Shown here: positions 30,943 through 31,122 of the stretch, piece after piece
How positions within the stretch are numbered: the first letter of the stretch is position 1
Layout of the letters: every line of letters begins with the position of its first letter
IMG/VR virus record: IMGVR_UViG_2718217862_000001
Direction: 5' to 3' (one strand)
DNA length: 41,292 nt
Source: a virus
Lineage: Duplodnaviria > Heunggongvirae > Uroviricota > Caudoviricetes
Program-made: the position numbers and the translations under genes
The notes under the pieces: generated by a model
Seen by the model: the letters and a program-made list of their open reading frames with translations, nothing else
Database searches by the model: none
Told to the model about the DNA's origin: nothing

Positions 30943-31122
30943 TTACCGCCAGTATTCAATGCACATGACCGCCATGAACACCCCTAAAAAAAGGGCATTT
31001 ATATATCCAAATATTAATATCAAAACATCAACTTTTTCCATATACCTTGCTGTGAAGATGATGGGCATACATGATACGAACAACCAGAACGCAACAAACA
31101 AAAACTGCAATGCGTTTTTCAT
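30943..31122 (-). CDS. Small membrane protein, two predicted TM helices
   Basis: 59 aa from MKNALQFLFVAFWLF..., RBS TAGGAGGAATA before ATG, AT-rich context. Confidence 0.4.
   Translation of the reverse strand: MKNALQFLFVAFWLFVSCMPIIFTARYMEKVDVLILIFGYINALFLGVFMAVMCIEYWR

Follow-up and report, generated by a model that had tools for sequence, protein, structure and literature searches.

What, if anything, is encoded in the AT-rich interval upstream of the hok/sok toxin-antitoxin locus in a lambdoid prophage of Escherichia coli? The sequence at issue is the virus record IMGVR_UViG_2718217862_000001 (41,292 nt, here called the window), which is a Qin/Rac-like lambdoid prophage of E. coli, and the element in question is a 59-codon open reading frame (ORF) with the 59-aa product MKNALQFLFVAFWLFVSCMPIIFTARYMEKVDVLILIFGYINALFLGVFMAVMCIEYWR. 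The initial annotation had read it as a small two-helix membrane protein with a strong ribosome-binding site, in an AT-rich stretch beside hok, and had let the case turn in part on conservation of the frame. We find the frame conserved, in a second branch of the family that is equal in length, 41% identical and alignable without gaps, and we conclude from the comparison of the two branches that the ORF is very probably a real protein-coding gene. Taken as a whole, the locus is likely explained by an unannotated gene for an inner-membrane helical hairpin, carried as prophage cargo and present in two branches, termed A (the branch of the window) and B.

The reading frame and its two branches

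An exhaustive phmmer (HMMER) search over 1.84 billion representatives identified the branch B protein P0040 (59 aa, E = 3.7e-9); the form common in branch B, P0046, occurs on >1000 contigs. BLASTP aligns branch A with P0040 over 24/59 identical and 42/59 positive residues. The diverged branch surfaced only in the exhaustive HMMER search, and word-indexed protein searches, run with the single sequence or with a two-branch profile, returned only near-identical (>90%) E. coli and Shigella sequences together with frame-disrupted variants. One of the sequences considered as a diverged homolog, L089 ('53% identical'), was rejected, as it is the same DNA with a weakened Shine-Dalgarno (SD) sequence and several frameshifts. 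No homologs were found outside E. coli and Shigella in the protein searches, exhaustive HMMER included, and as judged by these results the family is unnamed, is confined to E. coli/Shigella and consists of two branches.

At the DNA level, both ORFs span 180 nt, and 108/180 positions are identical between the branches (60%). The differences are distributed over codon positions 1, 2 and 3 as 25/16/31, 14 codons differ synonymously only, and Nei–Gojobori estimates of non-synonymous (dN) and synonymous (dS) divergence are 0.44 and 2.33, giving a dN/dS of 0.19 (synonymous vs non-synonymous differences, Fisher p = 8e-5). A six-frame check identified the 59-codon ORF as the sole frame open in both branches; the other five carry stops in at least one branch. 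Judged against shuffles, the ORF aligns with z = 14.4, and the 150-nt flanks are weakly alignable (z 4.6–4.7). A contrast of nucleotide gaps, expected only outside the ORF, was not clean, in that the aligner, with the chosen penalties, put gaps inside the ORF too, and our argument is built instead on the two ORFs being equal in length and on the protein alignment having no gaps. These comparisons indicate that the frame is under purifying selection between the branches.

Variation within branch A was assessed in a population sample fetched by an invariant flanking DNA tag, independent of ORF integrity, which replaced an earlier sample chosen by protein match and biased to intact copies. The intact 59-aa protein is encoded in 114 of the 116 tag-fetched copies, and the SD reads AGGGGG in 60/116 and AGGAGG in 54/116. 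The frame first described, 59 aa with AGGAGG 4 nt before the ATG, agrees with both the sequence and the ORF list and is real, with two corrections: it lies on the minus strand, and AGGGGG replaces AGGAGG in about half of the natural copies. The ribosome-binding site can fairly be called strong, and the same AGGAGG with 4-nt spacing precedes the DUF977 gene (32465–32887) and the ORF at 16326–16664 in the window. The description of the stretch as AT-rich is likewise accurate, the G+C fraction being 0.325–0.39 across 30900–31300 and ~0.5 in the flanks.

Many GenBank entries use a 72-aa form that begins at an upstream GTG, which we rejected. The ATG start is preferred because: (i) the strong SD precedes the ATG and falls inside the 72-aa extension, the GTG having a GAGG only 1 nt away; (ii) the N-terminus, M-[KR]-[NK]-x-L, is kept between the branches in the alignment; and (iii) in branch B, the upstream sequence, read directly, contains an in-frame TAA six codons upstream of the ATG, and the extension is not conserved there. 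Older GenBank submissions contain the protein, at 59 or 72 aa, under the names 'hypothetical protein' or 'putative membrane protein' on >1000 contigs. For branch A, three genomes were inspected (M217, ATCC 8739 and EBJ003), and RefSeq/PGAP annotates nothing at the ORF in any of them; the ORF is absent from all seven RefSeq annotations inspected across both branches.

Could such a frame be a chance product of a T-rich, AT-rich spacer upstream of the hok promoter, with its hydrophobicity a by-product of composition? In 5000 first-order Markov simulations of the AT-rich stretch (400 nt), 20% of the sequences contained an ATG ORF of 59 codons or more, and 0.26% contained such an ORF together with a 5-of-6 SD match at 4–13 nt. 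The length of the ORF alone is thus within chance, and the ORF plus its SD is beyond chance. As we read the sequences, the coding question is settled by the comparative evidence and not by ORF length. A geneless spacer would accord with the frequency of such lengths in composition-matched simulations, with the silence of PGAP/RefSeq in all seven genomes, with the mostly non-synonymous polymorphisms within branch A and with the confinement of homologs to E. coli and Shigella. It does not accord with the same start, stop and length being kept at 60% DNA identity, with the third-position excess and low dN/dS, with the breakage of every other frame in at least one branch, with the SD found in both branches, with the 98% of unbiased copies that are intact, or with a branch B ORF that lacks variation while its neutral flanks vary (see below). 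We therefore regard a chance ORF as very unlikely. That the real gene is instead the opposite-strand ORF, the longest of the stretch and an annotated coding sequence (CDS) in ON470619 and ON470612 (both 'hornerin') and PV340562 (hypothetical), is still more improbable, being refuted by two stop codons in the homologous branch B frame, and this ORF moreover lacks an SD before its ATG, runs counter to the whole early operon and is low-complexity and Asn/Lys/Thr-rich, as expected antisense to a hydrophobic gene. Both readings are effectively excluded.

Table 1. Features at and around the 59-codon ORF, in window coordinates
Feature	Position	Strand	Basis and remarks
59-codon CDS	30943..31122	minus	ORF list; ATG 31122-31120, TAA stop 30945-30943
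Shine-Dalgarno AGGAGG	31127..31132	minus	read from sequence; spacer AATA (4 nt), then ATG
AT-rich leader, 170 nt, upstream pseudogene to ORF	31123..31292	minus	GC profile; invariant block 31205-31235
Spacer, ORF stop to hok mRNA 5' end, 89 nt	30854..30942	minus	terminator scan; Rfam sok model boundary 30853
Complete hok/sok type I toxin-antitoxin locus	30528..30853	minus	Pfam and Rfam; neighbor, not part of the ORF's gene
85-aa shadow ORF	30959..31216	plus	called CDS in three GenBank phage records; judged not a gene

The predicted membrane hairpin and its comparison with known systems

Kyte–Doolittle and Hessa windows place hydrophobic segments at residues 4–25 and 33–55 of the protein, with an 8-residue polar loop; the Kyte–Doolittle score KD19 exceeds 1.6 at 3–27 and 30–56, and the Hessa dG minima are negative for both branch A segments. 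AlphaFold2, run on a nine-sequence alignment, predicts helices at 2–26 and 32–58 with a mean predicted local distance difference test (pLDDT) score of 72, and the grand average of hydropathy (GRAVY) of the protein is 1.3. Based on these predictions, we hold with good confidence that the protein is a membrane hairpin with two transmembrane (TM) helices. The two hydrophobic helices of the initial annotation are thereby recovered, and the proposal of a small two-helix membrane protein gains support from frame conservation, hydropathy and the predicted structure. In branch B, R2 and K3 stand at the N-terminus and the loop bears E26 and E30; by the positive-inside rule the most likely topology would be N-in/C-in with a short periplasmic loop.

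Residues M1, L5, L8, W13, S17, C18, P20, I21, I22, T24, L36, F38, G39, N42, A43, L44, E56, W58 and R59 are invariant, and G47 is kept in 8/9 aligned sequences, which gives the motifs SCxPIIxT in helix 1 and FGxxNALxxG in helix 2. In helix 1, S17, P20 and T24 share a face, as do G39, A43 and G47 in helix 2, where N42 is placed mid-membrane. Helix faces of this small and polar kind typically mediate helix–helix packing.

The protein had not been recognized when first described, and aptly so, as no curated family matches it. Nothing significant was found in Pfam, where no family member matches HOK_GEF even at E ≤ 10, nor in PHROG, NCBIfam and PADLOC scans (PADLOC returning nothing at E ≤ 10 for either branch). 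A sequence profile search of the PDB found nothing, and Foldseek against the PDB and viral structures (BFVD) returned generic hairpins only, at E > 1 (best E = 5 in the PDB). All four branch B members have a sub-threshold match to DUF4212/TIGR03647 (E = 0.03, 14.5 bits vs a cut-off of 26), and branch A has none; a further sub-threshold match of branch B is to phrog_6298 (E = 0.019).

Comparison with known small membrane proteins places the product in context. Hok/Gef proteins (PF01848) are, like it, small, hydrophobic, located in the inner membrane and borne on prophages or plasmids, and the ORF is adjacent to hok, similar in length and in the same early-operon cargo position. However, Hok crosses the membrane with one TM helix and has a Cys-containing tail in the periplasm, whereas two TM helices are predicted here; control of Hok involves sok antisense RNA, mok and folding of the mRNA, whereas the ORF has neither an antisense signal nor a structured leader; and the ORF persists where hok has been lost and its product has no HOK_GEF match. 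In the type V system GhoT/GhoS, the toxin GhoT is a two-TM membrane protein that resembles the predicted hairpin in its about 57–59 residues, two predicted TM helices, short loop and almost complete lack of a soluble part, but library scans detect no similarity and no GhoS-like RNase gene lies beside the ORF.

Class II holins/pinholins such as S21 have two TM domains, an N-in/C-in topology and a small-residue zipper in the second TM domain. The hairpin would belong to the same predicted topology class, has a GxxxAxxxG-like face in helix 2 and is phage-borne, but it ends in EYWR, without a charged C-terminal tail or dual-start motif. The ORF is, moreover, located upstream of Q, several kb from the holin–lysozyme pair and outside the lysis cassette; this prophage type already has a class II holin beside the lysozyme gene (in the identical M217 prophage), and no holin family of PHROG or Pfam matches. 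T4 Imm and the Sie proteins of temperate phages are small inner-membrane proteins of superinfection exclusion. As small membrane-embedded phage cargo able to benefit a lysogen, they are compatible with retention of the ORF in a fossil prophage, but no homology, no PADLOC match and no lysogen promoter were identified. DUF4212/TIGR03647 proteins, finally, are two-TM hairpins of similar size to which branch B matches weakly, but the matches are below cut-off, branch A is unmatched and no symporter gene is adjacent. The protein is an unnamed addition to a familiar class, the small hydrophobic prophage-cargo proteins, and is notable for being widespread, conserved, missing from RefSeq and the lone survivor in a fossil prophage.

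Prophage setting, distribution and the branch B island

Strain M217, like many other chromosomes, matches at 100% identity a 901-bp query that covers hok, the ORF and its leader. All the neighboring genes in M217 lie on the ORF's strand. In the direction of transcription, the ORF is preceded by Cro/CI, YdaT, a replication-type gene, DUF977 (LygF), several small ORFs, DUF7167 and a frameshifted pseudogene, and followed by hokD, a rem-like ORF, DUF968 (YdfU), RusA, the Q antiterminator, and then holin and lysozyme genes. The slot of branch A lies within the early rightward genes (nin-type block), after those for replication and before the one for the Q antiterminator, and typically just upstream of hok/sok. 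The hok CDS of the window (30528–30683) matches Pfam HOK_GEF at 1.2e-23, the Rfam sok/hok-leader model matches 30678–30853 with 112 bits, and the ORF stop is 90 nt upstream of the modeled 5' end of the hok mRNA, so that the placement beside hok holds. Among 97 loci, hok is directly downstream in 73, 3.3 kb further off (about 3.8 kb from the tag) in 11 and not found in 12.

Complete hok/sok in the window (30438–30853, minus) is unlike K-12 hokD, which is fused to relBE; the terminator of the locus is at 30442–30459, and an isrK-like Rfam match below threshold (27 bits, E = 0.0017) at 30438–30519 overlaps its 3' end. In K-12 Qin (NC_000913.3 1645119–1645872), relBE fills the slot upstream of hokD in place of the ORF and the hok leader, and this junction thus appears to be a hot spot of cargo exchange. 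The gene just upstream of the ORF (31293–31609, minus) is in this prophage a pseudogene, with a frameshift and an internal stop; strain EBJ003 has an intact 204-aa version (L003 1814–2428), whose only family match is a weak one to phrog_660. Viewed as a prophage moron cassette, the locus has a clear AT-rich dip, mosaic boundaries at ~31316–31329 and variable downstream junctions, and no consensus promoter or terminator was found.

The leader has zero variable sites at 31197–31239 among 32 haplotypes, and its predicted RNA fold is not more stable than that of shuffles (z = 0.37). The terminator scan detected no intrinsic terminator between the ORF and hok or flanking the ORF, an Rfam scan gave no RNA family overlapping the ORF, and scans of the opposite strand gave neither a promoter nor a terminator at the ORF. 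A likely promoter of hok itself, picked by eye, is TTGCGG-16 nt-TAGAAT at 30887–30860. The idea that the ORF forms a type I toxin module was rejected, there being no antisense promoter, no Rfam family and no structured leader that sequesters the SD.

Branch A DNA is present in 1570/5426 complete E. coli genomes, with an identity of 96–100% in all but two, and among species-representative genomes it occurs only in records titled E. coli or Shigella. In ATCC 8739, the ORF is intact though its neighbors are pseudogenes and an insertion sequence (IS) element.

Branch B occupies a single-copy, fixed chromosomal site in 1045/5426 complete genomes, including LF82, EC958, clone D i14 and ATCC 11775. 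The site is bounded by ttcA and an integrase fragment on one side and by uspF–ompN on the other in these B2-type strains, and corresponds to the Rac attachment region of K-12. The 2.3-kb island is the fossil remnant of a prophage of the type that carries branch A: it keeps a lygF/DUF977 fragment upstream of the ORF and a 66-nt piece of hok coding sequence ~55 nt downstream, no other ORF of more than about 100 aa is left in it, and RefSeq marks only pseudogenes there (in the annotations of four of the seven genomes). In four genomes picked by DNA match, the flanks have 40 variable sites in 2078 nt and the 180-nt ORF has 0, where 3.5 are expected (Poisson P = 0.03). The gene has outlived hok and the rest of the prophage, which is suggestive, not proof, of selection. 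In the island as found at L209 3984–6170, there are also a C-terminal integrase fragment, a DUF1627 fragment and a frameshifted metal ABC permease, and the 10 genomes compared share an invariant block that extends beyond the ORF by ~80 nt on its upstream side and 50 nt on its downstream side (L209 4922–5229).

Several features elsewhere in the window characterize the prophage itself. The DicF small RNA (sRNA; 36737–36788, plus, 77 bits) adjoins homologs of dicB, ydfC and ydfD, which confirms a Qin-like module for immunity and division inhibition. The sRNA family STnc100 is represented by two tandem copies downstream of the Q antiterminator gene, at 26596–26784 and 27060–27253 (minus; 132 and 138 bits). 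A tRNA with a CAT anticodon (27604–27679, minus) is called tRNA-Met by ARAGORN and tRNA-Ile by RefSeq in the identical M217 prophage, and is presumably a lysidine-dependent Ile tRNA. At 1–72 (plus), the start of the window truncates an ALIL pseudoknot, which serves as frameshift element in IS3-family transposases and here indicates an IS element at the left edge.

Possible roles of the protein

The data themselves show a coding frame under purifying selection, its genomic contexts and its distribution, and they predict the hairpin; what we infer for expression, topology, oligomerization and biological role can be put as follows. Transcription would most simply come from the early rightward operon, when the prophage is induced or during infection, and otherwise from a weak promoter belonging to the gene itself; the transcript may read through towards hok, and the strong SD would drive efficient translation. 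The protein would insert into the inner membrane and act by helix–helix packing, with itself or with another membrane protein, through a surface formed by S17-C18-x-P20-I-I-x-T24 of helix 1 and F38-G39-x-x-N42-A43-L44-x-x-G47 of helix 2. A specific protective or exclusion role, such as the blocking of a superinfecting phage at the inner membrane, can be put forward tentatively, by analogy. We somewhat favor a protective role, or at least one that does the host no harm, over a toxic one, because the ORF is intact where hok and all other phage genes have decayed, because there is no antitoxin-like partner and because there is no mRNA structure of the toxin type.

A number of observations weigh against the explanation of the locus as a gene for a membrane hairpin. 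Concerning expression, the promoter scan found no sigma-70 consensus promoter upstream of the ORF on the minus strand, and in branch B there is no upstream operon to provide transcription; branch B, if expressed, would have to depend on a non-consensus promoter. A literature search by peptide string, UniProt identifier and context found nothing on the protein and no Ribo-seq or proteomic record, and K-12, the usual strain for Ribo-seq, is without the gene. Concerning selection, the polymorphisms within branch A are almost all non-synonymous, though conservative (V16A, V31I, I37M, Y40H and M53T), and recent constraint within that branch is therefore not demonstrated; the databases hold frame-disrupted variants, with changes in a T7 run, IS insertions and the heavily decayed L089; a 180-nt ORF is a small target that could survive prophage decay by chance; and the comparative depth is limited to a family of two branches. 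The proposed role, finally, is based on context and on analogy with small phage membrane proteins, not on homology.

Among the disrupted variants in the protein databases, the 55-aa frameshift forms P0019, P0021, P0024 and P0025 are accounted for by a T7 homopolymer inside the ORF (coding strand, 30986–30992), not present in branch B; they may be sequencing errors or genuine products of slippage. Variants P0017, P0034, P0037 and P0038 switch at differing points to peptides resembling IS ends (IDWPPESPDNQYHLNK, GFAPIFPDTCYHLTHYW), which look like independent IS insertions into the AT-rich ORF in rare genomes.

The initial annotation named toxins, exclusion factors and division inhibitors as frequent roles of small hydrophobic phage proteins, and each may be considered here. 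Among alternative functions for a real gene, the foremost is that the product could be a two-TM toxin that damages the membrane or arrests growth, or a factor in lysis timing, which together with Hok would depolarize the membrane and speed shut-down and phage release on induction. With a prophage hok/sok locus, growth arrest and phage release have been shown to follow induction more quickly (PMC8621323). The small size and very hydrophobic character of the protein, with its mid-membrane Asn and a G39/A43/G47 face as in pore-forming peptides, are consistent with such an activity, as are the early-operon location beside other host-takeover genes, the position directly upstream of hok in most of the loci without an intervening terminator, and the fact that the same synteny is ancestral to branch B. 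However, in branch B, hok is destroyed and the ORF is intact and invariant, which is unexpected for an unguarded toxin. Nor is there an antisense RNA or antitoxin partner, a leader with the SD-sequestering structure typical of type I toxins, or a match to Hok or another toxin family of Pfam or PADLOC. We consider a toxic function rather doubtful.

It is unlikely, though conceivable, that the gene is a lineage-restricted one that arose, perhaps de novo, in lambdoid prophage DNA and was then domesticated, with B2 strains keeping it for a benefit at the inner membrane; such a benefit may be a new, minimal way of excluding superinfecting phages or blocking injection, or protection against Hok-type toxins. 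We attach still less weight to a product that serves a larger membrane protein of the host, such as a transporter or sensor, as accessory subunit or modulator, in the way that many small membrane proteins of bacteria bind and tune their partners. The conserved small/polar faces of both helices would suit heterotypic packing, the persistence of the gene in the B2 chromosome is in line with domestication for a host function, and DUF4212/TIGR03647, which the four branch B members match weakly, is the two-TM small subunit of sodium/solute symporters. Against this, the DUF4212 score is below its cut-off and lacking in branch A, no transporter gene is adjacent in the context of either branch, and Foldseek against the PDB gave nothing convincing, so that a modulator appears improbable.

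Whatever its function, the hairpin gene extends the set of small membrane proteins that prophages encode by a new, unnamed family. Its DNA is found in up to about half of the complete E. coli genomes (1570 with branch A and 1045 with branch B of 5426), and its carriers include the well-studied strains LF82, EC958 and ATCC 8739 and the type strain ATCC 11775. Annotation pipelines systematically overlook small hydrophobic proteins, and here GenBank phage records put the locus on the wrong strand; the result argues for adding the family to annotation resources. If the protein is an exclusion factor or membrane modulator, it would offer a very small and easily handled model, and if it is a toxin, it would be a second membrane effector at the hok locus of lambdoid phages. 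The two branches also constitute a natural experiment, in which the same gene has been kept in a fossil prophage while its hok neighbor decayed, and this points to a host-relevant function. Should domestication be the true explanation, up to about half of E. coli genomes would carry an unrecognized small-protein function that is invisible in RefSeq.

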